Positions 3,790 to 28,100 are shown, counted from the first letter of the stretch. The stretch is DNA of 64,000 bases from Puniceicoccales bacterium (GCA_031268535.1 JAIRXB010000014.1:8108-72107); one strand, 5' to 3'. Notes: generated by a model from the letters alone, not told the origin. A program made the numbers and translations.

Positions 3790-4878
3790 CTAGGGGGATG
3801 GTTTTCCAATTTCCGCCATGCGCGCTTCCATTTCGGCGCGCCGTAGAGCCTCCAAAAGATTGGCCAACTGCCCATCCATTATTTGTGGTAAATTGTGCAG
3901 CGTTAGGCCAATGCGGTGGTCAGTCAGACGATTTTGCGGAAAATTGTAGGTGCGTATGCGCTCCGAACGGTCGCCGCTGCCGATTTGGCTGCGCCTATTG
4001 CTGTCGTACTTTTCCCTTTCTTCGCTGCGGCGCCTTTCCAGCAGCCTCGCGCGGAGCACTTTCGTCGCCTTCACCTTGTTTTTCTGCTGAGATCTTTCGT
4101 CGGCGCATATGACGATCATGCCGGTGGGCTTGTGGAGAATCTGCACGGCAGAATCGGTTGTATTTACTCCCTGTCCGCCTGGGCCGCTGGCTTTGCACAC
4201 CGTAATTTCCAGTTCCTCTGGAGCAATTTGCACGTCAACCTCTTCCGCTTCCGGAAGCACCGCCACCGTCGCAGTGGATGTGTGTATGCGGCCGTTAGCT
4301 TCCGTCACCGGAACGCGCTGTACGCGGTGGACTCCGCTCTCCAACCTGAGTGTGCGATAGGCGTTTTCGCCGCCAATGGAGAAAATTATTTCCCTAAAGC
4401 CGCCACTTTCTGCGCCGCTGGCGCTAAGCAATTCAACGGTCCATGCGGAGCACTCCGCAAGGCGCACGTACATGCGGTAGAGATCCCCAGCAAAAAGTGC
4501 CGCTTCGTCTCCTCCGGTTCCGGCGCGAATTTCAATGACCGTATTGCGCGAATCGTCGGGGTCTTCGGGGGCCATTAGGCCCATCAGGCGAAAGTGTGCA
4601 TCGCCCTCTTCGGCCGAGACGCGTCCAAGCTCTTCCCTGGCGAGAAACTTGATGTCTTCGTCGCAACCTTGGTCCGCCAGGATCGATTCCGCTTCCAGAC
4701 GAGCCTGCTCCAGGGAACGGCAGCGGCCATGGGCCTCCAGAAGCTCTCCAATGCGGCGATGCTCACGCGCCACGGCGGCGGCCCGCCTGCCGTCGCCGTA
4801 GAAAGTTGGCTCAGCCATTTCTTTGGCCAGCTCTCTCTGCCGCTCCACAAAGCGATCAACTGGAGGAATGCTGTCCAT
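3790..4878 (-). CDS. prfA: Peptide chain release factor 1
   Basis: 362 aa. It carries the RF1-specific P-V-T tripeptide (RVQRVPVTEANGRIHTS) and the universal GGQ motif (SGPGGQGVNTTDSAV). Confidence 0.92.
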   Translation of the reverse strand: MDSIPPVDRFVERQRELAKEMAEPTFYGDGRRAAAVAREHRRIGELLEAHGRCRSLEQARLEAESILADQGCDEDIKFLAREELGRVSAEEGDAHFRLMGLMAPEDPDDSRNTVIEIRAGTGGDEAALFAGDLYRMYVRLAECSAWTVELLSASGAESGGFREIIFSIGGENAYRTLRLESGVHRVQRVPVTEANGRIHTSTATVAVLPEAEEVDVQIAPEELEITVCKASGPGGQGVNTTDSAVQILHKPTGMIVICADERSQQKNKVKATKVLRARLLERRRSEEREKYDSNRRSQIGSGDRSERIRTYNFPQNRLTDHRIGLTLHNLPQIMDGQLANLLEALRRAEMEARMAEIGKPSP

Positions 4879-4892
4879 TGGATTGGCGGCGG

Positions 4893-4963
4893 TGCGGATG
4901 GAGGGAGTCGAACCCTCACCTCAAGCTTGGGAAGCTCGCGTATTGCCGCTATACTACACCCGC
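4893..4963 (-). tRNA. tRNA-Gly (anticodon CCC)
   Basis: Reverse complement folds as a cloverleaf. The acceptor stem is GCGGGTG/CATCCGC, the anticodon arm is CGAGC-TTCCCAA-GCTTG, and the T-arm is GGTTCGACTCC. CCA is not encoded. It lies about 15 nt upstream of the prfA start codon on the same strand. Confidence 0.8.
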
Positions 4964-5089
4964 GTCGGCTCTTTCCTGGGGGAGGCGGCGGAGTCGGCAA
5001 GCGCAAAATGGTGCGGATGGCTCAATTTTGCCGAGGCACCGCTGCGCCGATGGCGCAGCTAGAAAAATTTCGAGAGCTAATGTTTTTGC

Positions 5090-6631
5090 GTGCGCCATCT
5101 CAGTTCTCCAGATATACTCCACGCAACCGATATGGCTGATGTGGGATTTAATTTTTTTGGTGGCATCAGATTCAATTTGGTTGATGAGGAATTCTCCAGG
5201 GCGATGCAGTCGCTTAGGGACTCCGTAACGCCGTCCAAAGACATTGCGAGTATTTCCACTGGAAATGTAGCCGACGACGACGAAAGTGTAAATACTTCTG
5301 ATCTCGCCACCTCATTATTTAGAGCTTCAGATGATGTTGGTTGTCTGTTCGTGTGCGATTATGACGCGAAGCTTTCGGCTGGGCAGAAGTTTTTTTACGT
5401 TTTGCTTTTGCTGGTCACATTCGGCTTTTACCAGCGTTCGATCAGGATGGGTACGCAAAGGCTTGTGGAGGCGGTGAAAGCTGGCGGCGCAGCTGATGAT
5501 GTCAGGAGAATTTTGGTCGAAATTTTAGGTGAGAGCAATAGAGGGGCCATTGGCGACATTGTCAAAGATGGCAACATCGAGGCCGTTGTCGAATGCGCCA
5601 ATGTTTCCGGTGCCGTCGCCGTTTTAGGCAACAAGTTCGATTCGCTATTTGTGGCCGCAAACAAAGAAAGTGTAGATGGGACGAAACCAAAATTCAATAG
5701 GGCATTTGAGCTGCTTGCCTTCGCCGCATGCGCAAAGGCCGATAACCTTAGCGAAGCGATTGATGCCGTTGGAGCAGCTGACGACGCGCGGGGAATTGCG
5801 GAAGCGCTAAACAAACTTACGGACGGCGAAGCTCAAGTCTTCAAAGCCAAAGGCGGTGCGGAATGTGATGACCTCGAAGCCCACAAAGCGGAAATAGTTA
5901 ACCTCCTTAAGTTTATCCATGCCGATTTTGAACTCGCAAAAGTAATGGATTGGCGTGCCGCCCGCATTGCAGCGGCCGAAAAGATTTTTAACCTTGCAGA
6001 GTGGAAAAGTTTAGTTGGCAATGCTGGTGCGGATACATATTATGCTGCAGATATCATTCGCAATAGTCGTGGCGCGCATGCGGCCGCGACAGAAATTGCG
6101 GAAAAAATTAAAACTCTCATTGGCGACGGCGGTATTTATGAGGGAAAGTTAGCGTTGAAATCTGCTCCAAATGAAGAATTGGTGGCAGACTCCATTACCG
6201 TAGAGCTGATTATTGAATCCATTGCGGAATATGTGCGTTCGCAATACGAAAAGCTCGCGAAAGAAGATGCCATCCATGATTCTTTCTATTGGAATATCGC
6301 AGGACGTCCCGGCAGTCTTGGAGAGTTTCTTGGTGTGATTGGGCTGACACTAAAGGGTGGAGAGGAAAATGTTCGCACATCCCGTCCCTCGTTGACTGAA
6401 TATATACTTACCTGTGGCGGACCGCTAGTACTTCATGTTTCCAGTTCGTGCGCTAGAGCGATAACTGCAGTGAAAGTAAAAGATGGAAAAACTGCCAAAA
6501 CGCTAATTGATGGTGAAGTGGCCGAAGCGAAAGACAGTGCAAAAAGAGAAGCTGCCGAAGCAATTAAGGCGCTTATGGGGAGGAAGCCTGCAGCCTCTGC
6601 GGAAGCGCCGGAAGAATCTGGAGGTAGCTGA
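5090..6631 (+). CDS. Paralog 1 of an Ala-rich single-pass membrane protein family (about 500 aa); the true start is probably the ATG near 5132 (MADVGFNFFGGIRF...)
   Basis: Track ORF. It shares with the four downstream paralogs the motifs FFGG(I/L)R, SAGQK before a roughly 20-aa hydrophobic helix (FFYVLLLLVTFGFY), AFELLA, LNKL, EYYA, FEGKLAL, ELIxESIAEYVR, LGEFLG and TLGQLIE-like. Confidence 0.8.
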   Translation: MRHLSSPDILHATDMADVGFNFFGGIRFNLVDEEFSRAMQSLRDSVTPSKDIASISTGNVADDDESVNTSDLATSLFRASDDVGCLFVCDYDAKLSAGQKFFYVLLLLVTFGFYQRSIRMGTQRLVEAVKAGGAADDVRRILVEILGESNRGAIGDIVKDGNIEAVVECANVSGAVAVLGNKFDSLFVAANKESVDGTKPKFNRAFELLAFAACAKADNLSEAIDAVGAADDARGIAEALNKLTDGEAQVFKAKGGAECDDLEAHKAEIVNLLKFIHADFELAKVMDWRAARIAAAEKIFNLAEWKSLVGNAGADTYYAADIIRNSRGAHAAATEIAEKIKTLIGDGGIYEGKLALKSAPNEELVADSITVELIIESIAEYVRSQYEKLAKEDAIHDSFYWNIAGRPGSLGEFLGVIGLTLKGGEENVRTSRPSLTEYILTCGGPLVLHVSSSCARAITAVKVKDGKTAKTLIDGEVAEAKDSAKREAAEAIKALMGRKPAASAEAPEESGGS

Positions 6632-6693
6632 TCCTGTTCCGCGGAATGTTCAATCGAAGATTTGCGACGCGCTAGGCCCTAAATGGCGGGCTG

Positions 6694-8325
6694 ATGTTTT
6701 TTCTTCTTGCGTCATCCCGGCTTCATTGTCATACTGCTGCTGAGGAAGTAAAAAATATGAGCATCGGATTAGGATTCATTGGCTCCTTCAGAGCCACTGC
6801 GCTCCAAGCGGAGCTTGGCAAGCTCGTGGGCAAAGTCGAGACAACTGCGACCGGTCTGGGGCACGCTAAAGCAGTGACTACTGGCAGCGCTATAGGTGGT
6901 GGTGCCGAATCCAAAACTGAAAAACTCCTGGATCTTGGCAAAGCGTTGTCTGCGGGCATAGTGGGCGGTGTCGATGACAAATTCGGAAGCGTAAAAACGT
7001 CAGCCGGGCAGAAGCTTTTATTTCTTCTGCTGTCGCTAATTACGTTTGGCGTCCTTCCAATCGTGATTAGGAGCGGTGCGCGCCATGCTGCCGCGGTGAC
7101 GGAAAGAGGCGATGAAACCGCGCTAAAGGATATTTTGGTCAAAGCTTTTGGCGGTGACAATGCCAACAAAATTGCTGACAGTTCATACATCAAGAATGCC
7201 GTCGCATGCGCAAAAGCCTCCTCGGCCGCCATCGCCATATGCAAATCATTGGATAAAGCGTTCGCCGTTGAAGATGGTGGAGCGAGTGAATCTTCTGCGG
7301 ACGCTGGTGGCACTGCAAAGTCCCAAAAACCACCAATGAAAGCGTCTGCAATGTTTATCAAATATGCCTTTTCGACCGCTGAAGATCTTGATGATTTAGC
7401 CGGCAAGACAGCTGACGCTGCGGACGCAGATGCGCTACTGACTATTTTAAATGAAAAACTCGCGGGGGAAGCAACTCAAAAATTCAAGCTTAATGGCGGT
7501 GACGATCAGTCTGAAGGAGAGGGTCTTGGTAAACTTAAAAGCGAGATAGCTAGTTTCATTAAACTTATCTCGGCCAGTTCAAAACTTGCGGAGGCGCTGA
7601 GCCCAGAGGACATGCGCAAAAAAGCGGCCGCGGAAGTCCTTGGGGGTGCAGCGTGGGCGCAAAAGGCCGGTAAAAAAGATGCAGAAGAGTACTATGCGAC
7701 AGTTGCCTCTCGAGATGGCGGAAAATCGGCAAAACGACTGAATGGTGGCGTCAAAGAGATTGCCGACATAATTAATTCGCTACTTGGTGAAGATGGTGTG
7801 TTCGTAGGCAAAATAGCGTATGCTACAAGCCAAAGTGATGCCATAGTCAAAAGCGACGATTCCACTGATCTTACTAATGCATTCAAATCGGCCATTGCGG
7901 AGTTTGTGCGCACGGCCGTTGAGACACATTTGAGGGGAGGCAAAGAACTCAAGGATTTCCGGGCTATCGCCGCTCCCGCTAAAATAGGGGAGCTTCTTGC
8001 TATGCTGGGGCTGGTGGTGATAGGCGGTGAAGACGGCCTTAGCGGGGACGCTGACCTAAGTAAGACTAGTGGCCTAAAAAGGATTGGTGGAAAAGTTGCA
8101 GTCCTTCTCAGTAGGTATGTGGAAATACTAAAAACGGCTAAGGTGGATGAAGAAAAAACGCTTGGGCAGCTAATTGAGGACAAAATAAGCGCAGCAAAAA
8201 AGGGCGCGGAAGATGCGGCCGGTGTTGCGAGGGGGACCTTTATTGAAGCTACTGCTGTCCAGGAGGCTGAGGTGTCACGGGAAGAACCCCAAGAAAAAGA
8301 GCAAGCAGGTCAAGATGATGATTGA
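6694..8325 (+). CDS. Paralog 2 of the Ala-rich membrane protein family; the true start is probably the ATG near 6756 (MSIGLGFIGS...) after a GAGGAAG Shine-Dalgarno sequence
   Basis: Track ORF. Transmembrane segment KTSAGQKLLFLLLSLITFGVLPIVI, plus AWAQKAGKKDAEEYYATVA and TLGQLIED. The upstream in-frame ATG at 6694 lies inside the conserved promoter module and is not in frame in the other copies. Confidence 0.8.
   Translation: MFFLLASSRLHCHTAAEEVKNMSIGLGFIGSFRATALQAELGKLVGKVETTATGLGHAKAVTTGSAIGGGAESKTEKLLDLGKALSAGIVGGVDDKFGSVKTSAGQKLLFLLLSLITFGVLPIVIRSGARHAAAVTERGDETALKDILVKAFGGDNANKIADSSYIKNAVACAKASSAAIAICKSLDKAFAVEDGGASESSADAGGTAKSQKPPMKASAMFIKYAFSTAEDLDDLAGKTADAADADALLTILNEKLAGEATQKFKLNGGDDQSEGEGLGKLKSEIASFIKLISASSKLAEALSPEDMRKKAAAEVLGGAAWAQKAGKKDAEEYYATVASRDGGKSAKRLNGGVKEIADIINSLLGEDGVFVGKIAYATSQSDAIVKSDDSTDLTNAFKSAIAEFVRTAVETHLRGGKELKDFRAIAAPAKIGELLAMLGLVVIGGEDGLSGDADLSKTSGLKRIGGKVAVLLSRYVEILKTAKVDEEKTLGQLIEDKISAAKKGAEDAAGVARGTFIEATAVQEAEVSREEPQEKEQAGQDDD
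6702..6740 (+). promoter_or_regulatory. Conserved promoter-like module upstream of paralog 2 (TTGCGT, 17-nt spacer, TGtCATACT extended -10)
   Basis: The sequence ttcttgcgtcatcccggcttcattgtcatact recurs nearly identically upstream of paralogs 3 and 4. A diverged version (tttgcgtgcgccatctc...atatact) lies upstream of paralog 1. Confidence 0.5.
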
Positions 8326-8415
8326 ACATGATTCCGCTGAAGATTTGCTGCGGCGCTACTAAGCCCTAGGCTATGGACTTGCGGCTGCGCGTAGGCGAAC
8401 TGCGAAGATGCGCTA

Positions 8416-8442
8416 GGCGGGCGACTCCATTGGGCGCCCGCC
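8416..8442 (+). terminator. GC-rich hairpin in the conserved 3' flank of paralog 2, a candidate intrinsic terminator
   Basis: The hairpin ggcgggcg-actccattgg-gcgcccgcc has an 8-9 bp perfect GC stem and is followed by a T-containing tract (gttaaattttcgttttcg). The homologous flank after paralog 3 (about 10540-10570) is more degenerate. Confidence 0.4.
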
Positions 8443-8549
8443 GCGAGTGTTCCTGCCGTTAAATTTTCGTTTTCGCTGCGAATTTTCGTGGAAGCCATTC
8501 GCGCGTGGCTCTGGAAGCCGCCGATTTTTTTGGGAAAGTTCATATAAAT

Positions 8550-8826
8550 ATGGGCGACGGAAGGAAGATTGCGCGTGCCATCGGCAGGAAAATTTTCGAC
8601 CCCATAGGGAATCCAGCCGTCGAGGTTGATGTCGTCCTGCTGGACGAATCTGGAGGTCGCGCCGCCGTCATGTCCGGCGAGCTGGCGTTGTGCGACTAAT
8701 GAGTGCGCGGCGATGGCCAGCAATTTGCCCCAGTGCGCTAGGGCGGCAAAGGTGTGCTTGCCGCCGCGCACATTATAAATGCCGGCGCTGGATATCGCAG
8801 GCCAGGAGCTGGGAGAAAGATTTTTC
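8550..8826 (+). pseudogene. Degenerate 5' fragment of enolase (eno') with its upstream region, copied along with paralog 2
   Basis: It encodes [40 protein letters not shown]..., which is homologous to the start of the real eno at 14405. It carries internal deletions and a premature stop. It ends at the junction ...gaccaggagctg|ggagaaag, where eno would continue with attgatggc. Confidence 0.75.
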
Positions 8827-8840
8827 CGATTTTTGATGTT

Positions 8841-8880
8841 TTTTCTTGCGTCATCCCGGCCTCATTGTCATACTATTCTT
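8841..8880 (+). promoter_or_regulatory. Conserved promoter-like module upstream of paralog 3
   Basis: The sequence ttttcttgcgtcatcccggcctcattgtcatactattcttgaggaattaaaaatATG matches the module upstream of paralog 2 with 17-nt spacing. Confidence 0.5.
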
Positions 8881-8894
8881 GAGGAATTAAAAAT

Positions 8895-10445
8895 ATGAGT
8901 GACCCACTTAAGCTTGGAGTGTTCGGATCCATAAAGTCCGCTTCCATTGAAGCCCAGATTGCTAAGCTTGAAAGCAATCTTAGTAAGTCTGTAACCGAAC
9001 TGGGCGGCACCGCAAATGTGTCTACTGAAGCTAGTGCAGGTGGCGCAAAGCCAGAAGTCGTAGGCATTGCCGGTGCGCTATTGAGCGCCATAAAAGCTGA
9101 TGCTAGTTCGCCTGGAGTCGCAAAACCAACAGCTGCGCAAAAGCTTATATTTTATGTGCTGGTGGCAATTACATTTGGCATTCTTGCGCTCATGGTTAAC
9201 AGAGCTGTGGGTGGCGTTGTCGCGGCGGTGCAAGGTGGCGATTTGGAAAAGGTTAAAACTGCTTTGAAAGATGCTTTCGGAGATACGGATGGCGAAAAAA
9301 TTGCTCAAAGCCCATACATCACGAATGCCGCCGCAAACGCAAGAGCCGTTTCGGCCGCCGCTTCCGCGTGTGACGCGATAAATGTCGCGTTCGACATTGA
9401 GGCCGCCAAAAGCCAGAAGACGGGCGCTGACGAAGACAAGAAGGCGCCAGTACCCACTAAGGCTTCGGAGCTGCTTGTCGGACTTTTGTGCGGAAAAGCG
9501 GACAAGCTTAGCGCATTAGCTGAAGCTATTGATAAAGCCAACGACGCTAACGCACTAGTGAAAGCGTTAAATGATAACCTCGCGACTAACGAAACTCAAA
9601 CTTTCAAAATTAAAGCCGGTGGTTCTGCTCCGAGTGGAGATGGCTTTACCAAACTTAAAAACACGACACTTAGTCTCGCTAAGCTTATCGGCGCCAGTTC
9701 CGCATTTGCTGTGGCACTGGATCTAACGGCGTCCCGCAAAGCAGCTGCCGTGAAAGTTCTTGCGAATGAGGCGTGGAGGGACAAGACGGGCAAAAAATCG
9801 GCAAATGAGTATTACGCGACAGTTGCGCTTACTGATGATGCCACCCTGAAAGGAACTGTGGACACTGCTGCCGCAGAGGTCGCCGCGGCGCTTAAAGCAC
9901 TAGTTAATAAAACTGGCAGTGACGGCACGAACAAACTCAAGGGCAAAATAGCGGTTGTGGCAGATTCATCCGCAGCCGTAGACGAAGACGGCATTGTTGG
10001 TGATAAGCTTGCAGAAGGCGTTGGGGAGTTTGTGTGCAAAGCCGCTGAAAAACATTTAAGTGAAGGCGGGAAGCTCGAAGATCTTTCAGTTGCCGTTCCC
10101 ACTAAAGCATTGGAACTTCTTCCGGTGCTTGGGCTGGCGAAGCTAGATAGTAATGTCGACATTACTGATGCTACGACCGCGGAATCGGTTGGCCTCGGAG
10201 GCGAGGTGACAGGAAAGATTAAGGTCCTTGCTGACAAATATGTGGCAATGCTAAAAGCGGCAAATGTAGGCGAAACAAACAAAACGCTTGGGCAGCTAAT
10301 TGAAGAAGAAGTAACCAAAGCGAAAACGAATGCTGAAGCGACGGCTACTGCTGCAAGAGCTGCATTTATTGGTGCTGTTACTCCTGCGAAGATTCCACCT
10401 TCAGATCCGAAAGCGCCGAAAAAACCTGCTGAAGATACTAAATGA
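8895..10445 (+). CDS. Paralog 3 of the Ala-rich membrane protein family
   Basis: Track ORF of 516 aa. Transmembrane segment AAQKLIFYVLVAITFGILALMV, plus ALKDAFGDTDGEKIA, AWRDKTGKKSANEYYATVA and TLGQLIEEE. It is preceded by the GAGGAAT Shine-Dalgarno sequence and the conserved promoter module. Confidence 0.85.
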   Translation: MSDPLKLGVFGSIKSASIEAQIAKLESNLSKSVTELGGTANVSTEASAGGAKPEVVGIAGALLSAIKADASSPGVAKPTAAQKLIFYVLVAITFGILALMVNRAVGGVVAAVQGGDLEKVKTALKDAFGDTDGEKIAQSPYITNAAANARAVSAAASACDAINVAFDIEAAKSQKTGADEDKKAPVPTKASELLVGLLCGKADKLSALAEAIDKANDANALVKALNDNLATNETQTFKIKAGGSAPSGDGFTKLKNTTLSLAKLIGASSAFAVALDLTASRKAAAVKVLANEAWRDKTGKKSANEYYATVALTDDATLKGTVDTAAAEVAAALKALVNKTGSDGTNKLKGKIAVVADSSAAVDEDGIVGDKLAEGVGEFVCKAAEKHLSEGGKLEDLSVAVPTKALELLPVLGLAKLDSNVDITDATTAESVGLGGEVTGKIKVLADKYVAMLKAANVGETNKTLGQLIEEEVTKAKTNAEATATAARAAFIGAVTPAKIPPSDPKAPKKPAEDTK

Positions 10446-10656
10446 AAGCCGTAAATGATCTGCCGACGATTTGCGGCGACGTCTAAGCCCTAGACGATGG
10501 ACTGACGGTGGCGCGTAGGCGAACTGCGAAGGCGCGCTTGGCGGGCGACCTCATTGGGCGTACGCCGCGAGTGCTTCCGCCGTTAAATTTTCATTTTCGC
10601 TGCGAACTTTCGCGCGGAAATCATTTATAGGTGGCTCTGGCAGGCGAATAACCAAA

Positions 10657-10996
10657 TATTGGTGACGGAAGGAAGATTGCGCGCGTCATCGGCATGGAAA
10701 TTTTCGACCCGATAGGGAATTCAGCCGTTGAGGTTGATATCGTCCTGCGGGACGGATCCGTAGGACGCGCCGCCGTCTCGTCCGGCGCCAGCACCGGCGA
10801 GAGGGAGGCGCTGGAGTTACGCGACTGCGATGCGCCCAATGAGTACCTCGGTGATGACCCGCAATTTGCCCCCGTGCGCTACGGCGGCAAAGGTGTGCTT
10901 GCTGCGGTGCACAACATAAATGCGGCGATGGGGCCCGGAATCGTCGCGCTGGACGCCGCAGACCAGGGGCTGGGGAAAAGTTTTTCCGCTCTTTAA
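10657..10996 (+). pseudogene. Second, younger 5' fragment of enolase (eno'), about 100 codons and near-identical to eno, with the start codon mutated (ATG to ATT)
   Basis: Track ORF 10694..10996 ([58 protein letters not shown]...ALDAADQG) matches eno residues 1-100 almost exactly. It ends at the same junction (gaccaggggctg|gggaaaag) followed by the promoter module of paralog 4. Confidence 0.8.
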
Positions 10997-11000
10997 CGTT

Positions 11001-11040
11001 TTTTCTTGCGTCATCCCTGCTCCATCGCCATACTAATTTT
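11001..11040 (+). promoter_or_regulatory. Conserved promoter-like module upstream of paralog 4
   Basis: The sequence ttttcttgcgtcatccctgctccatcgccatactaattttagggaattaaagatATG matches the other copies. Confidence 0.45.
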
Positions 11041-11054
11041 AGGGAATTAAAGAT

Positions 11055-12554
11055 ATGGCTGCACCTGTGAACACTCCTACCTTCTTTGGTGGCCTTAGGG
11101 TCTCCGTTGCTGAACGCGAATTTCACAGTGCCATTAGCGCGCTCAAGGAATCCGTAACCAAGCTGAATGTTGGTGCTGATGTGAGGACTGGAGGTGCTGG
11201 TTCTGAATCCGCCCAAAAGACAGAACGTCTGGGTCTCGCCGAAGCGTTGTTTGGCGCCGCAGAATCGAATCAAGGCCTGTTTGCGGTCTCGGGTGTGAAA
11301 CTTTCGGTTGCGCAAAAAATTGTTTACATTATTCTCGTCTTGGTTACGCTTGGTTGCTATGGATGCACGATCGAGGGCAGCGTGCGAGCTGTTGTTGGGC
11401 AGCTAAAGGAGGGCAAAGACGCTGCTGAAGTCGGGGCGGCTTTGAAGAAAATTGTAGGCGGCAGACAAGCGGATGTTGCGTTGTTTGTCGGCGACGGCAA
11501 ACACCTTGGGCCCCTTGGCAAACATGTTGCCGCCGCATCGGCCGTCGACAACCTAGCTAATCAATTCAACGCGCTGTTTAGCGTCAAAGACAAGAGCGGC
11601 AGCACTGCTAGCGATGTCACCAAATTCGATAAAGCGTTCGAGCTGCTTGCCTCTGCGTCATTCGCAAGTGCGGACAAACTTAGCGACGCAATTGATGAAG
11701 TCAATAAAAGTTCCGCTGCTGACGCCGTGGTGGTTGCTTTAAATAAACTTAATACTGGCGCAGCTCAAGAATTTAAGCTTACAGATGGTGCATCACCTGA
11801 TAAGTTTGGTGACACCAAAGTGGGGATTGCTAAGTTCTTAGCGCTTCTCTCCGCAAATCTTAATTTTGCAAATGCACTGCCCGCGAAGGACGCCCGCGTT
11901 GCGGTTGCTGGGACAATTCTTGCAGGCGAATCTTGGGCAAAGAAAGTCGCGGAAAAAAGTGCTAGCGAATACTACCTTGCAGTTGCGACCGCAAGTGAAT
12001 CCGAAGGGAAAGCGACATTCGACGCAAAAGCGGCGGCGGTTGTCAGTGCATTTAAAACACTAGTTGGTTCTGACCAAGCTTTTGAAGGCAAATTGGCGCT
12101 TGCGGCAACCCTAGGCGATAAAGTTGAAGGCGGTGGCATTACTGCTGAGTTGATTTCCGAATCAATTGCGGAACATGTGCGCGGTAAGTACGAGGCACAT
12201 TTAAATGCAGGCGGAACAAGCGACACTTTTAGCGTAGGAAGGCCCGCTAATCTTGGAGAGCTTCTTGGAGCCGTAGGGCTTGGGATAAAAAGTGGCGAAG
12301 TTGGAATCAAAGCCACTGATGCTGCGGTAGCAGACAACAAAGTCACCGAAGATGCTGTGGCGGCATTTATGGCCGCTGTTGAGCAGTGTATTGTGTGGAT
12401 AAAAGCGGCGAAAGTGACAGGTGACAAAACCATCGAAACGTTAATTACGGATGCGGTTGAAAGTAAGAAACGAGTCGCAGAAAATGCCGTTAGCGACGCG
12501 CGGGACGCATTATCTGCTACTGCTAAGTCGGTGCCACCTGCATCCGCATCATAG
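11055..12554 (+). CDS. Paralog 4 of the Ala-rich membrane protein family
   Basis: Track ORF of 499 aa. FFGGLRVSVAEREF, transmembrane segment SVAQKIVYIILVLVTLGCYG, plus AFELLASASFASADKLSDAID, EYYLAVA, FEGKLALAATLGD, ELISESIAEHVRGKYE and LGELLGAVGL. Confidence 0.85.
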   Translation: MAAPVNTPTFFGGLRVSVAEREFHSAISALKESVTKLNVGADVRTGGAGSESAQKTERLGLAEALFGAAESNQGLFAVSGVKLSVAQKIVYIILVLVTLGCYGCTIEGSVRAVVGQLKEGKDAAEVGAALKKIVGGRQADVALFVGDGKHLGPLGKHVAAASAVDNLANQFNALFSVKDKSGSTASDVTKFDKAFELLASASFASADKLSDAIDEVNKSSAADAVVVALNKLNTGAAQEFKLTDGASPDKFGDTKVGIAKFLALLSANLNFANALPAKDARVAVAGTILAGESWAKKVAEKSASEYYLAVATASESEGKATFDAKAAAVVSAFKTLVGSDQAFEGKLALAATLGDKVEGGGITAELISESIAEHVRGKYEAHLNAGGTSDTFSVGRPANLGELLGAVGLGIKSGEVGIKATDAAVADNKVTEDAVAAFMAAVEQCIVWIKAAKVTGDKTIETLITDAVESKKRVAENAVSDARDALSATAKSVPPASAS

Positions 12555-12623
12555 GTGCGTCCCAAACGATGGAACGGCGGTGGCCCAATTCGCCAGGGCC
12601 ACCAATTTGGCCGCTGAAGGCGT

Positions 12624-14276
12624 GTGGATTCATTTTTTCCAATAAATCCACACGTCTTTCCGCATTCGCAATTTCGCAAAAGGCCTGCGAAAGGAGTTTT
12701 GCCTGTGAGTATTTCGTTCACCCAATCTATCGTGGCTCACTCGGCTTTGAACAGGCTTGCCGACGATGTGGCCAAGCGCGCTTCATCGGCAACGACCGAC
12801 ATTGGTGCCGCCGCAAAAGTGGCAACGAAGGCTAATGTTGTTGCCGCTGGCGGTGTGGCTGCGGCGACGGATTGCGCAGTCGCCAAAGCGCTAGTTTGCG
12901 CGGTGAAGATTGACGACGACAAAACCCTTGGCTGCGTTGCACAACTTTCTTTCGGGGTAAGACTTGCATGGTTTGCGCTCACATTGTTTAGTTTTGGCCT
13001 ATGGCATTTCCTGGTGGTTAATCGCCAATCGCGGGATGTATCCGACAAGTTGATTGGAGCGGGCGGCGACTCCATTGACGCCGATGGACTGAAAAGAATC
13101 TTAGGTGAAGAGTTGGGCGAAAAATTAGCCAATTCTTCATACGTTAGGAGCTGCACGGTCGCCACAAGCCTCTCCGGGGCGGTTGACGATTTTGCGGGCA
13201 AATTTAACGCAGCATTCACAGTAGCTAAATCCACTGAGGCAGAGGTAGAAAAGCAAACAACATTCCAGAAGCCGATTGAGCTGCTTGCCTACGCTACGCA
13301 CCTGGCCCAAAATGCAAGTTATCATTATCTAATGGCGTTTGCTGGCGCCATGAGCGGGACTAGTGATGTCTATGAATTGATGGATGTGCTGAATCGTTAT
13401 GTCATAGATGGCGGGCAAGCATTTTTGATCGCGGAAAGTGCGCCTGCTGAACTAGCAACCTTTGAAGATTTAAGGGCGGCCCTAGTGGCGTTCGTCCGCC
13501 TTACCGCCGCCGCCATGGGCATAGCGGAAACGTTGGATCCGAAGGCATTGCGCCAGGAAGCTGCCAAAAATGTGTTTTACGATAGCAGTGCGTGGAGGGA
13601 GTTTGAGAGTGCTGCCGAAAGAGCAAACGATGAATGTGACGCCAATGCGGCCGTTAAAGCGGCAATTGATGGTCAAAATGTTTTTGGAGAGGAAAAAGGC
13701 GATGAAGCAACGGCGTTCAATGCATGCTTTGGGAAGCTGGTAGCCGCTCTCGGGCGCGGCGGGCCCATTGAAGGCGCCATTGCGAGTGCCGATGGCAGCG
13801 CAATTGCCGATGGAGACGCGCTAAGGGATGCGATCAAGAGCGAAATCGACCATAAGATTTTCTGGAGAGCATTAGTCGTATCCGTAGTCTACTACTATAA
13901 GATGTTCCTCATTGGCGATCCCTACAAAAAACAAGATTTCGCCGCATCGTTGGCCGAAGAAGATGGCGGTTGCCTTGTGAGATTGCTCGGTCTACGGTTT
14001 TTTGGCGCCGCATCATCGGATGGAATGGAAAGGGATGCTGCCAGCAGGGCGATTGCAGACGCCATCCGGCCCCTCATTGTCGAACTTGCCGACGTCATTG
14101 CTGCGGCTAAGTTCAGTGTAGACGGTGCGGATGTGACCGTAGAAGATCTAATTGCGAAGGAAGAAACTGCGCTAAAGACTAAAGCTGAGACAGCAATTTT
14201 AAATGCGCGAGACGTTTTTATCGCTGCCGCTAGGGAGGTCGCCACTTCTAGCGCCAGCGCTGAAGACGCTGAGTAG
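12624..14276 (+). CDS. Paralog 5 of the Ala-rich membrane protein family, the most divergent copy; it probably starts at the GTG near 12705 after AGGAG
   Basis: Track ORF of 550 aa. It has the same architecture: an N-terminal region, a hydrophobic helix (LSFGVRLAWFALTLFSFGLWHFLVV), then a long Ala/Asp/Glu/Lys-rich region containing IELLAYATHLAQNAS and an Ala-rich C-terminus. It lacks the conserved upstream promoter module and follows paralog 4 after about 70-150 bp. Confidence 0.75.
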   Translation: MDSFFPINPHVFPHSQFRKRPAKGVLPVSISFTQSIVAHSALNRLADDVAKRASSATTDIGAAAKVATKANVVAAGGVAAATDCAVAKALVCAVKIDDDKTLGCVAQLSFGVRLAWFALTLFSFGLWHFLVVNRQSRDVSDKLIGAGGDSIDADGLKRILGEELGEKLANSSYVRSCTVATSLSGAVDDFAGKFNAAFTVAKSTEAEVEKQTTFQKPIELLAYATHLAQNASYHYLMAFAGAMSGTSDVYELMDVLNRYVIDGGQAFLIAESAPAELATFEDLRAALVAFVRLTAAAMGIAETLDPKALRQEAAKNVFYDSSAWREFESAAERANDECDANAAVKAAIDGQNVFGEEKGDEATAFNACFGKLVAALGRGGPIEGAIASADGSAIADGDALRDAIKSEIDHKIFWRALVVSVVYYYKMFLIGDPYKKQDFAASLAEEDGGCLVRLLGLRFFGAASSDGMERDAASRAIADAIRPLIVELADVIAAAKFSVDGADVTVEDLIAKEETALKTKAETAILNARDVFIAAAREVATSSASAEDAE

Positions 14277-14389
14277 GTGGATCGTGGGAGGCGTTTTGCG
14301 CCAAGAGGTCCGTTGGTGGAAAGTCCTTTGGCGCTAGGTTTTTGATTTCCGCCTAAAATTTTCTGTGGGATTTTCGCGAATGGCTTTGA

Positions 14390-15739
<1,350 letters not shown>

Positions 15740-22150: not shown

Positions 22151-25100
22151 CTAGGCTGGTGTGCCTGTACTCTGTTTTGCCCTCCGCCTGGAAGCAAAAC
22201 CTGTCGTCGGCGCGGGTGCGGCGGCAGCGCAAGCTTGTATGTGGTCTGGGTCGCGTTTTGCGATCATCAAGCAGGCAAGTTTTCCTTCCGTGAAAGGCGG
22301 AATGGCTTTGTTTGTCTTTCTAATGCCCTCGTATGTATTGGCTAGCTCAAGTAGCTGTTGTTGCGAACCGCCGCCGATCTGGCTTTCAGTTTGGTAGGCG
22401 ACGCCAATTGCCGCAGCTGCGGCCGGGAGTAGAGTTGAATCAAGTGTCTTAAGGTCGGCAATTGATTTAACGTTGAATATGACTAGCGTATCGGCTACGC
22501 CGATTTCGCCAAACATTTTTAGTCGATCATTTTTAGTGTGGTTGGCAGCTAGTGTCCCACTAAAATCTTTCAGCGCTTCTGATCTTATGCTTTTAAAGAG
22601 GGCAGTACGGTTTTTGGCAGCGTTTTGGTCAGCGATTGCCGTTTTAAGGCATTGCGCCATGTGAATGGCGGCAATGAATGCAACTTCGCTTTTTAGCGTC
22701 CTATCGTGTTTTTTGTCGAAGAAGTCGCTTGCGATCGCAAGTTTGCCTTCTTTGGCAAGGCCTAGAAGATCGCCGCCATGACTCGCCGCAAACTCATTCA
22801 ATTGAGTTCCGTCACAGCATCGCACTGCAGCCGCCAATTTGTCTGGGTCCACAGCTCCTCCTATCGTTATCACGGCGTCGCAGCCCAAAAGTCTAGCAAA
22901 TGGCGTGCTTGCGCAGGCTTGGATTTGGGCGACGGTAATTTCTTCCTGATGACTGTTGGTGCTAAGACTGGCGCGCAGCAGCTCAAGGGAATCTTCGCTG
23001 GCCATTAGCGTTTCCAGTTGCTCACCGACTAAATTGTCCTTGATTCGAGCAAGAATATCGGCAGGGGCGCAATTTTTCAAAACGGCGGCAATGCAATGTA
23101 GAAACACAAATTTCGCGTTTGCCATTTCGGTTTGTTTTCGGCTGCAAGATAAGATGGCGCTTTTGCTGTTTGGGGATCGTTTTTTTAGTGCTTCGGCTTT
23201 TTCGTGTTCCCCGGATGCATCTTTGAAGTTTCTGGCGACAGCTATGAAAAATTGCGGATTCGCCACCGGTATGCTTTTGACTATTGGCGAGCTGCCGCTG
23301 TTTTGCTGCTCGCTTTCAAACCCTTTTCGGATGGCGTCCATCGATTGTGACTTCTGCAATTCAACGTCGCCGCCGACCAAAATGGCGGCAATGATAGACT
23401 GCGGATTCGACAAGTTTTCAAGGTTGCCGTAGTTTTTGGTGAGAAGATGATTTTGTGGATCGCATATGTATAGCGTCACCGGGCTTGTTTCGCTAAGTCC
23501 TTCCAGCACCTTTTTTTCGCCATAGGCAACTATGGCCGCGGCCCTATGTTTGATATCTTCGGTTGTTGCGTTCGGCAAAGTGGATCCGAATGCTGCAACC
23601 GGTAAAAGTTTCAGCATCGATTTTGCGTCTTCATCTTCCGCAACTGTCTTAAACCACGCACCGGGAACGTGCATCCATTGCGATCCGTTCATGAGTGGCC
23701 CCATGAGTAGAATAATGTGGTATGGTATCTGTTTGGCGAAATGCTCGAAAAATCTTGCGACGGAAGCTTGCAAAACTGGACCATCGTAGTTATTGATGAA
23801 TCTGGATTGGGATAAAATATTTCTTTTTGCCACTGCGTCCAAGCACTTCAAAAGCCGCTTTTCCACATCCGGGTCGCCGCTGATCGTTGAGGCCCTAAGC
23901 ATGAGCGATATTATGAGTTTGTTGGTGGTGTTCGAAAGGTTGCCTTCAAGTCTAGTCAACTTCGCCAATGCCGCGTCTCTTTCGCTTCCGGAAGCGGCTT
24001 CGGTGAGTCTTTTGAAACTGACGGCCAATTGCTGTGCCAACTTTTCCGTAACGTCTTCGTTCCATGCTGTGTGGTCGAGGCGATTTAGCTGATCGATGGC
24101 TCCGTTGCGAATCACAGCGTCAGCGAGTTGGACGGCGGTTTCTGCAGCGACACAACTCTGTTCATCTCTGCCGGCCCCAGATGAGGCTGCTTTGGCCGTA
24201 TTGTTTACCTCTTCGACGGGCAGGGCGGTCGTTAAAGCTTGATCTTCCGATACACATTCAATCAAGTATGGTCCGCAGTTACCCAAGAAATCAGCCTCGG
24301 TGGCGTATGCTACGAGTTTCTGCGTTTGGAGTGAACTTTCGTGTTCTTCGCCGGCCGACTGGTCCAGTACGCCCAATTGCTGCCGTATCAATTGCGCCTC
24401 AAGCATGATTTTGGCATAATTTGCTTCTGAATCTGAAGTGTTGATTTCGCGGGCAATTCCGGCCATCCTGTCGCGCATGTCTTTCGTTTTTTTCGATTTC
24501 TTTTCCGCGGATGCCGCAAAAAGATTGGCGATCATCGCTTCCGTTGAAGCGACGATTTGTCCTTTGCAAAAATCTGTGGACATAGCTTCCAGCACGTCAG
24601 CTTTGCTGATGTTTGAAATGGCGCCATTGCCGCAGACCAGCAGCATGGCGACAAGGTCATTGTAGAGAACAGAATCCGACTCTTTTATCTTAGCCAGCAT
24701 GTCGCGGTTCCAGACATCCGGAAATGCTATGGCGCCAGTGGATTGTGAATTTGCCATTTCCACGAAAATATCCGTTGGAACCGTGTGGGGGAATCTGGTG
24801 CTGGCGAATGTGGAAACTAGGTCGTTTCTGAGATGCAATATGGCGCCTGCGAAGAATGCTCCGCTCGTGCGCGATTCAGCGCCAATTGTCAGGCCGCGCC
24901 CTCTGGCATCTAGGTCAATGAGCGTTCTGGCATTATCTCTTATGCGTGTTAGCGCCGCCAGGCTTGGGACAGTGTAAAAAACACTGCGAAGAGCCTCGTC
25001 GCCATCCGCCTCTGCGCCAGCGAGCTGCGCGAGTTGAGAATGGCGGCCTATCCCTAAATTGCGACCTGTCCTGCCACGGCCATTGGCGCGGAGCATACCG

Positions 25101-28100
25101 TTAAGATTGATGGCGCCATCGAGATAGGCTTTCTTTATTTCGGCCGCCATAGCAACGTCGTCACCATGATTAGGGGTGATAAACGTACATTCCATAATGG
25201 CAAGGCTTGATTCGGCTTTGCACTTTCTCACAAGGTCGGTAACAAGGTCGTTAAAACGATCTGTAATGGGACTGGTATTTTTTTCTATCTCACTTCTGAC
25301 TTCGAGGCTTTTTTCCGACAGATTAAACCATTGCGTGCCAGCGGCGGCAAGTATCTTTCTTCTGTCTGTGGTGTCGACTTTTCCGCCGCGCGAAGCGTCC
25401 AGCAAGCTCTTCCGTGCGATATTGGCGTCGGAGGCAGTATTGCCACATACGGTGTCGGCCAAATGCTGAATTTGATCTATGGCGTAAACCGAATCGTGCG
25501 TAGCCGATTCGATCTCGTCGACCGCTCGCTTGATGACTAATCTGGCTGCACCTGTTGCTTGTTTGGCATTAGATGCATCTACTGCAGTAAGTGAGCCAAC
25601 GATTGCTTTTGCGACGGCTGTCATGGTAGGCAACGCCTTTGCAAAAACGTCATTTTCGAGATTGCCGACACAGCATTCCGTAAGCTCCACTAGAAGGACT
25701 TGTTCAATGAGTTTTAGTTCCGGCGGCCACGTAGTAGCGCCCGTATCGCGCATAGATTTTCGCACCGGAGAGTTTTGATCATCAAAATCAAATGCAGCGA
25801 TCCATCGTACAACGTGAGGCTTGGCAGCGTCATCGACGATTTTCGCGACTCCGAATAGCTTCGCAACGTTGCTATTCTCACTACTCAGCAGAACTCTTGC
25901 ATTATCAATTATCCCTTTAGGACGAATATCACCAACTTTTGCTTTTGCTGCGGCGATCGAATCACTAATTGCCTTTCTCCTTTTCTCCAATGTTTTCCCG
26001 GGAATCATTAGGGCGAATAGGCGAAATGCATCCAATTGTCCGTAGGTGTCGAGTTGGTGCCAATCTTTGTCGGCCAAAAGATTGGTAAGCAAATCTTTGC
26101 TATTGGTGCCCTTTGCAACTAATTTGTCGATGAGGCCTTGAAGTTTAGCGTTGCCACCAACGCCAGCTATGGTGCGCGCGATCACGGCCATGCGAGTGCG
26201 CAGCTCGCTGCAGTCCTGCTTGGCTCCGCGGCCACGTTCAACCAAGCTAGCTATTTCAGCTTTTAATTTTTCAAAAATTGGAGTAACACATTCTTCGTCT
26301 TTGCGCTCGACATTCCTGTCGCGCCACGCACCAATGCCAACTGACAAGAGCTGCGAAACGGTCATGGACGCAACCTGCTGCGTTGATCCGTGGCGCACAA
26401 TTTCTTCCAAAATGCTGGCTTCCGGCTTTATCTGCGCCAAGGTTTCCAGATCGATTTTTTGGATTAGGTTCTGCGCGCCAGCCGTAAGCATGAAGCCTCT
26501 GAGATGCGTTTCGTTGAGAGCGGATATGGCATCGCAGCTTCCGAGGCGAATAATTTGAGCTACGTCTGCTCCCTTGAGAGACTTGCTAATGCTTTCAATA
26601 TCCCTTTCCCGAAGGCGAGCTAGAGCTCGCGGCATGCGTTGTGATAGCAGCAAAAAGTCTGCATAAGTAAGCACGAAAGCGGCATCGGACTCCATGCATG
26701 CGAGCCAGCCGGCGGCCGACGGCGTGCCGCTTGTTTTTGCGGTCTTTGCCGCGTTAAGGGCGCCTGTAAAACTTGTCCCTTTTGCATTAGCGGCATACGC
26801 ATGAGCAACTTGCGTAAGTGCAGCATCCCATACCGCCTGCCATAACTTTGATGTGGAGAAACCGCTATCGGAAAATTTATCCGTGTCCGGCCCATAGCCG
26901 AATGTTTTATGCATATTGGCGAGAACTGCAACGCATGCGATATCGGCGCTGTCGCCAAACTTGTCGTCTATGGCAATCACGAATGCCAAATTGGCAGCAA
27001 GGTGTTCGGCCAAAAATGATTCCCCGTCTTTTTCCGACACTACTCCCTCGGCGCCTCGAAGGCAGGCAGAAAGAGCGGACGATCTGGATTTGATGCGAGC
27101 GATTACCGCATTGCTAAGAGTAGCGCTGCCAATTTCATCGAGTGCCTGTGCCATTTCGGCTTTTCCGGGGGATTTGCGCACCATGTCCCTAGACAAAATC
27201 GCCGCCTGCTTTTGCCCTATGGCTGCATTATTTTTTGCGTTAGCGAGCAGGGCGTAGACCGTACTTACGCATTCATCCGACGAGATTCTCGCTATGCGCT
27301 CTTTCGAGAGCCTTGTGGACAGCATGACGTGAAGCGGACTTCCGTCGGCTATAAATTCCGCCGGCTTCGCCGCAACTTTTTCGCCCCCGCCATCTACGGC
27401 TTCGGATGGCATGCGAGGTTGTGGAATGACATCGTCGCAATCGACATCGCATTTGCGCACATCAACCGCCAAACTGTGGCGCATTAGCAATTCAATTTGT
27501 TTATCCGTGATGTCATCGACCGTTATGGCTGGCGCCCCATCGCCCCTGACTATCGCCATTAGGAGCTTGACGAAGCCCTGCTCAATGCGCCCGCCGTCTT
27601 TGCACGATTTTTCGAGATCGATCAGTTCGTCGAAATCTTGCAGGCGGCCCGGCAAAAGTATTTCGCTAAGAGCTGTTCCAGTTGTTTCGTGGATGCGTAT
27701 GATTTGCCACGGGCAGAGCAGGCGCCTCAGTTCTACGGGAAATGCCTCAACCGTGGCCCATTTTAGACGTTCAACGTCAGACTCCGTTAGGAGTGGTGTG
27801 AATTCGTCCGTAAGTCGACCCACTACATCTGGCGCGCCCTTGAAGGCGGCTATGAACTCGGGAAATCGAAACATGTGCCTGATGAGTTGGTTGTTTGAGA
27901 TTCTTTGTAGTCTCTCGGACGACACCGATTTGGCGATAGCGGCGATCCATGGGCTGTTTGGCACACAAAAGGAAAGTATGTCGACTAGTGCCGCTTCGCT
28001 TTCTTGATTTGGGACGCCATTAGCGTCGCACTCAAGAAGTTTGGCGGCGACTTCATCCAACATGGATTCGCCGTCGGATTCTCCCGGTCGAGCCCTCAGG

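Follow-up and report, generated by a model that had tools for sequence, protein, structure and literature searches.

Tandem duplication and amplification in bacteria, as in Salmonella and Escherichia coli, begin with an illegitimate or short-homology join, which makes a new junction, and the array then grows by unequal exchange between homologous segments. It is likewise familiar that a working gene may undergo gene conversion or concerted evolution with a pseudogene or duplicate close by, for example in duplicate tuf genes and ribosomal RNA (rRNA) operons in bacteria. Both processes bear on a 64,000-nucleotide (nt) stretch, referred to here as the window, of the 72,107-bp contig JAIRXB010000014.1 (positions 8108-72107; GCA_031268535.1), which belongs to a metagenome-assembled genome (MAG) named 'Puniceicoccales bacterium' (Verrucomicrobiota). 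Five paralogous genes, P1 to P5, lie there head-to-tail ahead of the enolase gene, eno (locus tags LBI39_0235x-0239x), and two of the spacers between them contain a truncated copy of the eno 5' end: relic A, between P2 and P3, and relic B, between P3 and P4. The two fragments are probably scars without function that a tandem amplification in two steps left behind and that gene conversion has since blurred.

As in other tandem amplifications, one novel join within a gene has left a 5' fragment at a unit boundary and an intact copy at the end of the array, and a second copy of the junction would come from exchange between homologous parts of the units. Unlike a recent, unstable amplification, this array is old and fixed, its proteins being only 26-38% identical. 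It also departs from the typical case in having units of two sizes, one of two genes and one of a single gene, and in carrying an orphan family in place of a selected resistance or metabolic gene. The likeness to concerted evolution lies in relic B, where a discrete tract of at least 243 base pairs (bp) is near-identical to the live gene, while the sequence flanking it keeps an older, pseudogene-specific history, and where the tract stops at the point at which homology stops. Unlike the tuf and rRNA cases, the recipient is a short, non-functional 5' fragment and the conversion has no obvious selective value.

A blastn comparison of the region with itself aligns 10655-10972 with 14420-14737 (93.4% identity over 318 bp, E = 8e-137) and 8498-8791 with 14373-14696 (73.7% with gaps, E = 2e-56), each on the same strand. 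When the enolase is searched by tblastn across the window, two extra sites only are returned: relic B, codons 1-105 at 10658-10972 with 89.5% amino acid identity, and relic A, codons 1-92 at 8550-8792 with 59.8%. The intact gene at the end of the array thus has, in the relics, homologues of its 5' end and of the DNA preceding it, in the same orientation. The live enolase (14423-15739, + strand, 438 amino acids; GenBank MDR1436031.1, phosphopyruvate hydratase) has both Pfam domains, Enolase_N (5e-52) and Enolase_C (3e-122); the relics extend over codons 1-105 of 438 and cover part of Enolase_N only. A first-pass annotation of the stretch had described the spacers after P2 and P3 (8326-8894 and 10446-11054) as a terminator-like flank of about 230 bp, the eno upstream region and the first codons of eno, and both searches agree with it.

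The flank consists of two parts. Its first part is a paralog 3' untranslated region (3'UTR) of 124-129 bp with a GC-rich hairpin, at 8326-8449 after P2 (hairpin ~8416-8442) and at 10446-10574 after P3 (hairpin ~10540-10567; fold z -2.1). It is 83% identical between the two spacers (8326-8449 against 10455-10612), and no further full copy occurs within the window. The second part (83-100 bp) corresponds by homology to the 76 bp that precede eno (14347-14422) and opens relic A at 8450-8549 and relic B at 10575. Homology to the eno upstream DNA begins at 14347, just after P5's own 3' hairpin (in the P5 3'UTR at 14277-14346, with a T-run; fold z -3.6), and at all three places, following P2, P3 and P5, it starts directly after a 3'UTR hairpin. 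Taken over their 3'UTRs, relics and promoter modules, the two relic-bearing spacers are 77-88% identical.

In both relics the eno homology ends after GACCAGG(A/G)GCTG, at 8811|8812 and 10972|10973, which correspond to eno position 14737, the end of codon 105 (Leu105). Past this junction both continue as GG(A/G)(G/A)AAAG...TTTTTCC (segment J, ~24 nt) and then as the promoter module of the next paralog, so that the first-pass claim of a join at one and the same point of eno is upheld. J and the P3 module occupy 8812-8894 (J at 8812-8835; TTGCGT 8846-8851, 17 nt, CATACT 8869-8874, GAGGAA, ATG at 8895), and J and the P4 module occupy 10973-11054 (TTGCGT 11006-11011, 17 nt, CATACT 11029-11034, ATG at 11055).

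The coding parts are decayed, each in its own way and in a way that the two have in common. Relic A, whose eno codons 1-105 lie at 8550-8811, has lost 21, 11, 1 and 20 bp; the 11-bp and 1-bp deletions break its frame, and a stop follows after 49 codons. Relic B has ATT at the position of the ATG (10658-10660) and lacks 16 bp spanning the T-run and the ribosome-binding site (RBS) region of the eno leader. At codons 13-24 both relics read EIFDPIGN(P/S)AVE, versus (E/Q)I(L/I)DSRGNPT(V/I)E in the live eno and seven outgroup enolases, and L to F, S to P, R to I and T to A within this invariant motif are among the changes common to both. Because they share these disabling changes as well as an identical junction, both relics evidently descend from one decayed relic. 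The same two features support the first-pass proposal of one illegitimate event inside eno, and its proposal that the junction was copied in a second, homology-driven round is supported as well.

The relics differ in their closeness to eno, and this had been read as a difference in age, the copy after P2 being taken for the older and the copy after P3, almost identical to eno, for the younger. The internal deletions and premature stop of the one and the ATT of the other are as described; the ages do not hold. A three-way alignment of relic A, relic B and eno, in which variable sites were classed by the odd-one-out sequence, reveals a mosaic in relic B. Up to codon 24, starting in the eno upstream region (10575-10729 in relic B), A and B agree against eno at 26 sites and B and eno agree against A at 6. 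Between codon 25 and the junction (10730-10972) B and eno agree at 26 sites and A and B at 5. The best breakpoint is at 10724-10729 in relic B (eno 14489-14494), with a maximum chi-squared of 27.6, a value that 0 of 5000 permutations reach (p < 0.0002). In a relative-rate test on the right part, changes unique to A outnumber those unique to B by 26 to 3 (p = 1.5e-5), an imbalance that is impossible for two neutral sister sequences. The difference between relic B and eno is 13.9% in codons 1-24 and 4.1% (10/243) in codons 25-105, where the two are 95.9% identical.

The mosaic, which is seen directly in the alignment, indicates that at least 243 bp of relic B (10730-10972) were overwritten by gene conversion from the live eno, the mechanism and the direction being what we infer. 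Since the left part and the junction are relic-type and the middle is eno-type, two exchanges are needed, which points to gene conversion; one exchange alone would have removed or doubled P4-P5. The tract begins and ends inside homologous sequence, extending as far as the junction, where homology runs out. The putative donor is the live gene (the part copied into the relics being 14347-14737), a direction read only from its having kept the conserved enolase residues. The five sites at which A and B agree inside the tract cluster at alignment columns 316-352, within a lineage-specific insertion of the enolase, and may stem from substitutions that eno acquired afterwards or mark a stretch left untouched by the conversion. 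An origin of relic B by one unequal crossover of a relic with the live eno was also considered and was rejected; it predicts an eno-like left half and a downstream duplicate of P3, neither of which is seen. The near-identity of relic B to eno, which is limited to codons 25-105, reflects gene conversion and not age, and for this reason the relic alignment cannot date the duplications under any reading. Such dating had been suggested in the first-pass annotation; the alignment was run, and its mosaic structure makes the exercise impossible.

The order of the duplications can be approached through the paralogs themselves. In a tandem duplication, the gene after the join is a copy of the unit's first gene, and the gene before the relic corresponds to the gene before the intact copy. 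Applied to this locus, the rule makes P1 the first gene of the unit and pairs P5 with the ancestor of P2 and P3. Its first half holds: P4 (11055-12554, X type) groups with P1 (5132-6631, X type) with a neighbour-joining bootstrap of 99.9%, both are 499 amino acids long, and P4 scores 202 bits by tblastn with P1 versus 118-141 with P2 or P3. The DNA of P3 cannot be aligned with that of P4, and the two differ by 0.47 at fourfold sites. The closest relative of P2 (6757-8325, Y type, 522 amino acids) is P3 (8895-10445, Y type, 516 amino acids). P5 (12705-14276), the most divergent member and the putative Y-type partner of P4, is 523 amino acids long.

The DNA between the genes gives further indications of a two-gene unit. 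One candidate unit, 5061-8811, is 3751 bp long and the other, 10973-14737, 3765 bp. Upstream of P1, the region 5052-5131 contains an A/T-rich stretch like J (AGAAAAATTT..CGA, from ~5061) and a diverged promoter module (TTGCGT 5086-5091, TATACT 5113-5118), and it would be the left end of the first duplicated unit. To illustrate, when 5052-5099 is compared with 8805-8855, that is, with J and the P3 module across the junction point, 0 of 2000 shuffles score as well, and the same count is obtained for the P1 upstream region against J and the P4 module. The P1 upstream region is 60-61% identical to the P3 and P4 modules, whereas the P2 module matches it at 47%. P3 and P4 have J ahead of them and P2 does not, and from GATG onward the P3 module is nearer to that of P2 (11 sites versus 6). 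The P1-P2 spacer (6632-6756) is short and has neither an eno relic nor J. Over its first 40-55 bp it is similar to the beginning of the P2 and P3 3'UTRs (6655-6694 against 10464-10505, 0 of 1000 shuffles), and next come a small hairpin with a T-run and then the P2 module (TTGCGT 6707-6712, CATACT 6730-6735, ATG at 6757).

We consider it reasonably probable that the amplification fits a simple model in which the first duplicated unit held two genes. In step 1, one illegitimate recombination would have fused codon 105 of eno with DNA lying immediately before the P1 promoter, duplicating a unit of ~3.75 kilobases (kb) [J-promoter-X-spacer-Y-3'UTR-eno upstream-eno codons 1-105] and giving the order P1 P2 relic | P4 P5 eno, with P4 the putative duplicate of P1. 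The decay that would have come next is directly visible in the disabling changes that are now common to both copies. In step 2, the promoter modules preceding P4 and P2 would have undergone an exchange, either unequal or based on short homology, that duplicated ~2.1 kb [promoter-P2-3'UTR-relic-J], yielding P3 as a duplicate of P2, a second relic with the same junction, and the order P1 P2 relicA P3 relicB P4 P5 eno. Such an exchange explains the identical junction, the presence of J before P3 and P4 but not before P2, and the nearness of the P3 module to that of P2. Step 3 would be gene conversion from the live eno, covering 243 bp or more of relic B. Relic A would have gained its four deletions and its stop after step 2, and relic B would have lost its ATG and the 16 bp of leader. 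The first-pass annotation had recognized that P5 sits between P4 and eno without the flank, and P5 does lack a 3'UTR of the P2/P3 type. It had concluded that no simple model fits and that an additional deletion or insertion took place; with a two-gene first unit, the position of P5 next to eno without that 3'UTR would need no extra insertion. An earlier idea, in which [P4-P5-eno 5'] was duplicated and a precise deletion followed, was dropped as less parsimonious than the two-gene unit.

Several observations weigh against this history. The affinity of P5 is uncertain: phmmer links it only to P4 (23 bits), and the diagnostic columns split 7 to 5, with looser counts at 76 to 53 (p = 0.05), for a protein that is very diverged. 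The P4-P5 spacer has no similarity to the P1-P2 spacer, P5 has no promoter module, and the start of the P1 3'UTR resembles those of P2 and P3 when that of P4 does not. J alone is matched to the P1 upstream region at a level reached by 38 of 2000 shuffles (p ~0.02), the match being short. Divergence at fourfold sites of identical residues is 0.53 for P1-P4 (0.49 in well-aligned windows), far above that between relics and eno; for relic A the difference from eno is 0.17 in coding DNA and 0.35 upstream. For P2-P3 the same measure gives 0.36 (0.32 in well-aligned windows), versus ~0.17 between the two relic-bearing spacers (Fisher 3e-4), although chance identities of alanine might, by our own estimate, lower the P2-P3 figure to ~0.27. 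This clock mismatch means that the model needs the spacers to have been converted or homogenized repeatedly, and the tract in relic B makes that plausible. Relatives that could have supplied an intermediate arrangement for comparison were not found in our scans: anchored on the enolase, the best matches reach only ~65% amino acid identity among GTDB species genomes and at most 66% among metagenome contigs, and the junction DNA pattern has 0 matches in metagenome contigs. The literature, too, returned nothing specific to this MAG or locus.

The clock mismatch also suits a history in which the five-paralog array was already old when an eno fragment entered one spacer, once, and in which the cassette (3'UTR-relic-J-promoter) was then copied to the neighbouring spacer by conversion. 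We regard this as rather unlikely, and give the same low credence to its corollary that the conversion used the 3'UTR and promoter homology, so that the relics would be uninformative on how the array grew. The spacers are about half as diverged as the silent sites of the youngest paralog pair, the high similarity begins at the stop codon and stops at the start codon, the same ends recur in the short P1-P2 spacer, which has no insert, and gene conversion has operated at this locus. Against this stand the entry of an eno 5' end with P4 and P5 in between, for which there is no explanation unless by a duplication like that of the two-gene model, and the sisterhood of P1 and P4, their equal lengths and the J-like sequence upstream of P1, which are left unexplained; moreover, the excess at silent sites becomes borderline once chance identities in alanine-rich proteins are allowed for. 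A one-gene unit [promoter-paralog-flank-eno 5'], doubled twice to give P2, P3 and P4, with P5 inserted later and the flank lost, is what the first-pass annotation implied. It accounts for the identical junction, for relic A lying between the sisters P2 and P3 and for the promoter module common to P2, P3 and P4. It also predicts that P3 and P4 are sisters, and it is weakened by the gene tree, in which the partner of P4 is P1 and neither P2 nor P3, and by the failure of P3 and P4 to align as DNA. There is no J upstream of P2, an extra insertion of P5 and a deletion of the 3'UTR are required, and the apparent age difference of the relics, which it would use, is accounted for by the conversion mosaic. 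We judge it improbable. That the relics or the mosaic are unreal, the contig having been mis-assembled across repeats, is suggested by its source in a MAG and by the 70-bp exact stretch common to relic B and eno, but is extremely unlikely. The copies are diverged (the longest exact matches are 21 bp for A-B, 20 bp for A-eno and 70 bp for B-eno), relic B has unique differences and a deletion of its own, and mis-threading via the 70-mer would delete or swap P4-P5 and would not yield an A-like left part, an eno-like right part and a relic junction.

A different question is whether the relics do anything, as extra promoters or leaders that would place P3 and P4 under the regulation of eno, or as the small proteins (64 and 100-102 amino acids) that annotation makes of them. 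A conserved TTGCGT-17-CATACT module, a purine-rich RBS and an ATG belong to each of P2, P3 and P4, and the paralogs would be expressed from these modules; P2 uses the same module with no relic upstream. A consensus promoter scan found none upstream of eno. By eye, TTGACA at 14386-14391 and, after 17 nt, (TGg)GAAAGT up to 14414 can be made out just upstream of the eno ATG, a pair that the scan did not flag and that would imply a leaderless or nearly leaderless eno messenger RNA. This hexamer, the sole consensus -35 of the eno leader, is mutated in both relics, to CTGGAA in relic A and to CTGGCA in relic B, which also lacks the adjacent 16 bp. Relic A has a terminator-like hairpin followed by seven T residues at 8505-8530. 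The junction region and the eno leader have no significant RNA structure and there is no terminator between the relics and the modules, so that read-through is possible; an Rfam scan of 4800-15000 matched the tRNA alone and no family in the spacers. Relic eno promoters driving P3 and P4, as had been suggested, therefore look unlikely on the sequence. As for small proteins, both relics are annotated as coding sequences, relic B has an open frame of 100 codons, and the spacers are better conserved than the surrounding coding DNA. Relic A, however, has its four deletions, frameshift and stop, and the open frame of relic B, which is without the ATG and RBS region of eno, starts at an ATG made by mutation that has no RBS and ends in junction DNA. 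In both, S to P and R to I alter the invariant loop and Enolase_N is partial, and the changes specific to B, read by eye, are 3 non-synonymous to 2 synonymous, which is neutral-like. A function for the relics is highly unlikely on this evidence. We think it very doubtful, too, that the spacer cassette is kept by selection and by repeated conversion from the live eno as a regulatory leader that would couple the expression of a fast-diversifying array of membrane proteins, unique to this lineage, to the control of a glycolytic gene, a reading drawn from spacers better conserved than the flanking silent sites and from the lack of a strong terminator between relic and module.

The scars reading of the two fragments has a consequence for the databases. 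GenBank lists relic A as LBI39_02365, a hypothetical protein of 64 amino acids at 8505-8699, and relic B as LBI39_02375, a hypothetical protein of 102 amino acids, and IMG has a 100-amino-acid 'enolase' at 10694-10996 for relic B; neither database marks either relic as a pseudogene fragment. With their broken frame, lost start and mutated invariant residues, all three entries are, to judge from the DNA, pseudogene fragments and not genes. Concerning the live enolase, an insertion of ~17 amino acids at 14590-14640 (codons ~57-73) sets it apart from most Verrucomicrobiota enolases, and the insertion at this site in the enolase of Opitutaceae EW11 (L020) is a different one.

The cargo of the array is a family of its own. 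P1-P5 are alanine-rich, predicted to be all-alpha, and have one hydrophobic segment each near residues 80-105. They have no match in Pfam, NCBIfam or PHROGs, and a word-index search and a profile search against the PDB were also without match. In an exhaustive profile search over 1.84 billion cluster representatives, P2-P5 of the same contig were the only four matches, and an exact-protein look-up of contigs has P3 not on record. The family is an orphan, without a relative among ~15 billion public proteins. A 42-amino-acid protein in the 90%-identity cluster of P1 (P0013; L081) was examined and rejected as a clustering artefact; it is an unrelated Bacteroidota conjugation protein (DUF4133) from a conjugative-element contig.

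All five 1.5-kb frames are intact. P2 and P3, at 38% amino acid identity, are the sole pair with widespread similarity at the DNA level, and their divergence is 0.60 at non-synonymous sites (dN) and 0.81 (NG86) or 0.4-0.5 (fourfold sites) at synonymous sites (dS), for a dN/dS ratio (omega) of ~0.7 to above 1. A high omega together with intact frames suggests, and does not prove, that a function has been retained under diversifying selection. Rapidly evolving paralogs of membrane or surface proteins, arranged in tandem, are known from host-associated bacteria, as in omp-1/p28 of Ehrlichia and msp2/p44 of Anaplasma, and they are mentioned here as a lead only. Like them, P1-P5 are head-to-tail paralogs between housekeeping genes, with short promoter-bearing spacers, very high protein divergence and, here, a single hydrophobic segment each. 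Unlike them, P1-P5 have no sequence or fold relation to those families, and there is no evidence at this locus for an expression site or a donor-cassette system.

The members also differ in their starts, P2 and P5 beginning with MSI and P1 and P4 with MA; like the lengths of P2 (522) and P5 (523), these starts fit a first unit of two genes. P5 has a GTG start and an AAAGGAG RBS and, lacking a promoter module, may be co-transcribed with P4 or regulated differently. The P4-P5 spacer (12555-12704) contains two strong hairpins (12552-12670; fold z -4.7), and one of them is a 15-bp perfect palindrome, GTGTGGATT...AAATCCACAC.

On the + strand the order is prfA, tRNA-Gly, P1-P5, eno and sfsA, with prfA (3790-4878) at the start of the locus and tRNA-Gly (4891-4963) next to it, before P1, both of these being encoded on the - strand. 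GC content is ~50% in the array, 57-58% in its neighbours and 55-57.5% in the relic-bearing spacers. Farther along the window, at 22151-38500 on the - strand, a giant open reading frame with an ATG start encodes 5449 amino acids. None of its four fragments has a Pfam-A match at E<=1e-3, and its GC content, ~0.48-0.55, is below that of its housekeeping neighbours.

The kind of event recorded here is already well known, a tandem-duplication scar combined with gene conversion, and it is not a new mechanism. What is new is the corrected duplication history and a caution on dating. Boundary gene fragments and a gene tree, taken together, allow the order of duplications to be proposed, a two-gene unit first and a one-gene unit thereafter, and the similarity of a pseudogene to its parent reflects, at this locus, gene conversion and is unusable as a clock. 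A correction of the annotation for LBI39_02365, LBI39_02375 and the IMG 'enolase' follows. The more unusual element is the cargo, an orphan, fast-diverging family of five members that may be of interest for the Verrucomicrobiota (order Puniceicoccales).

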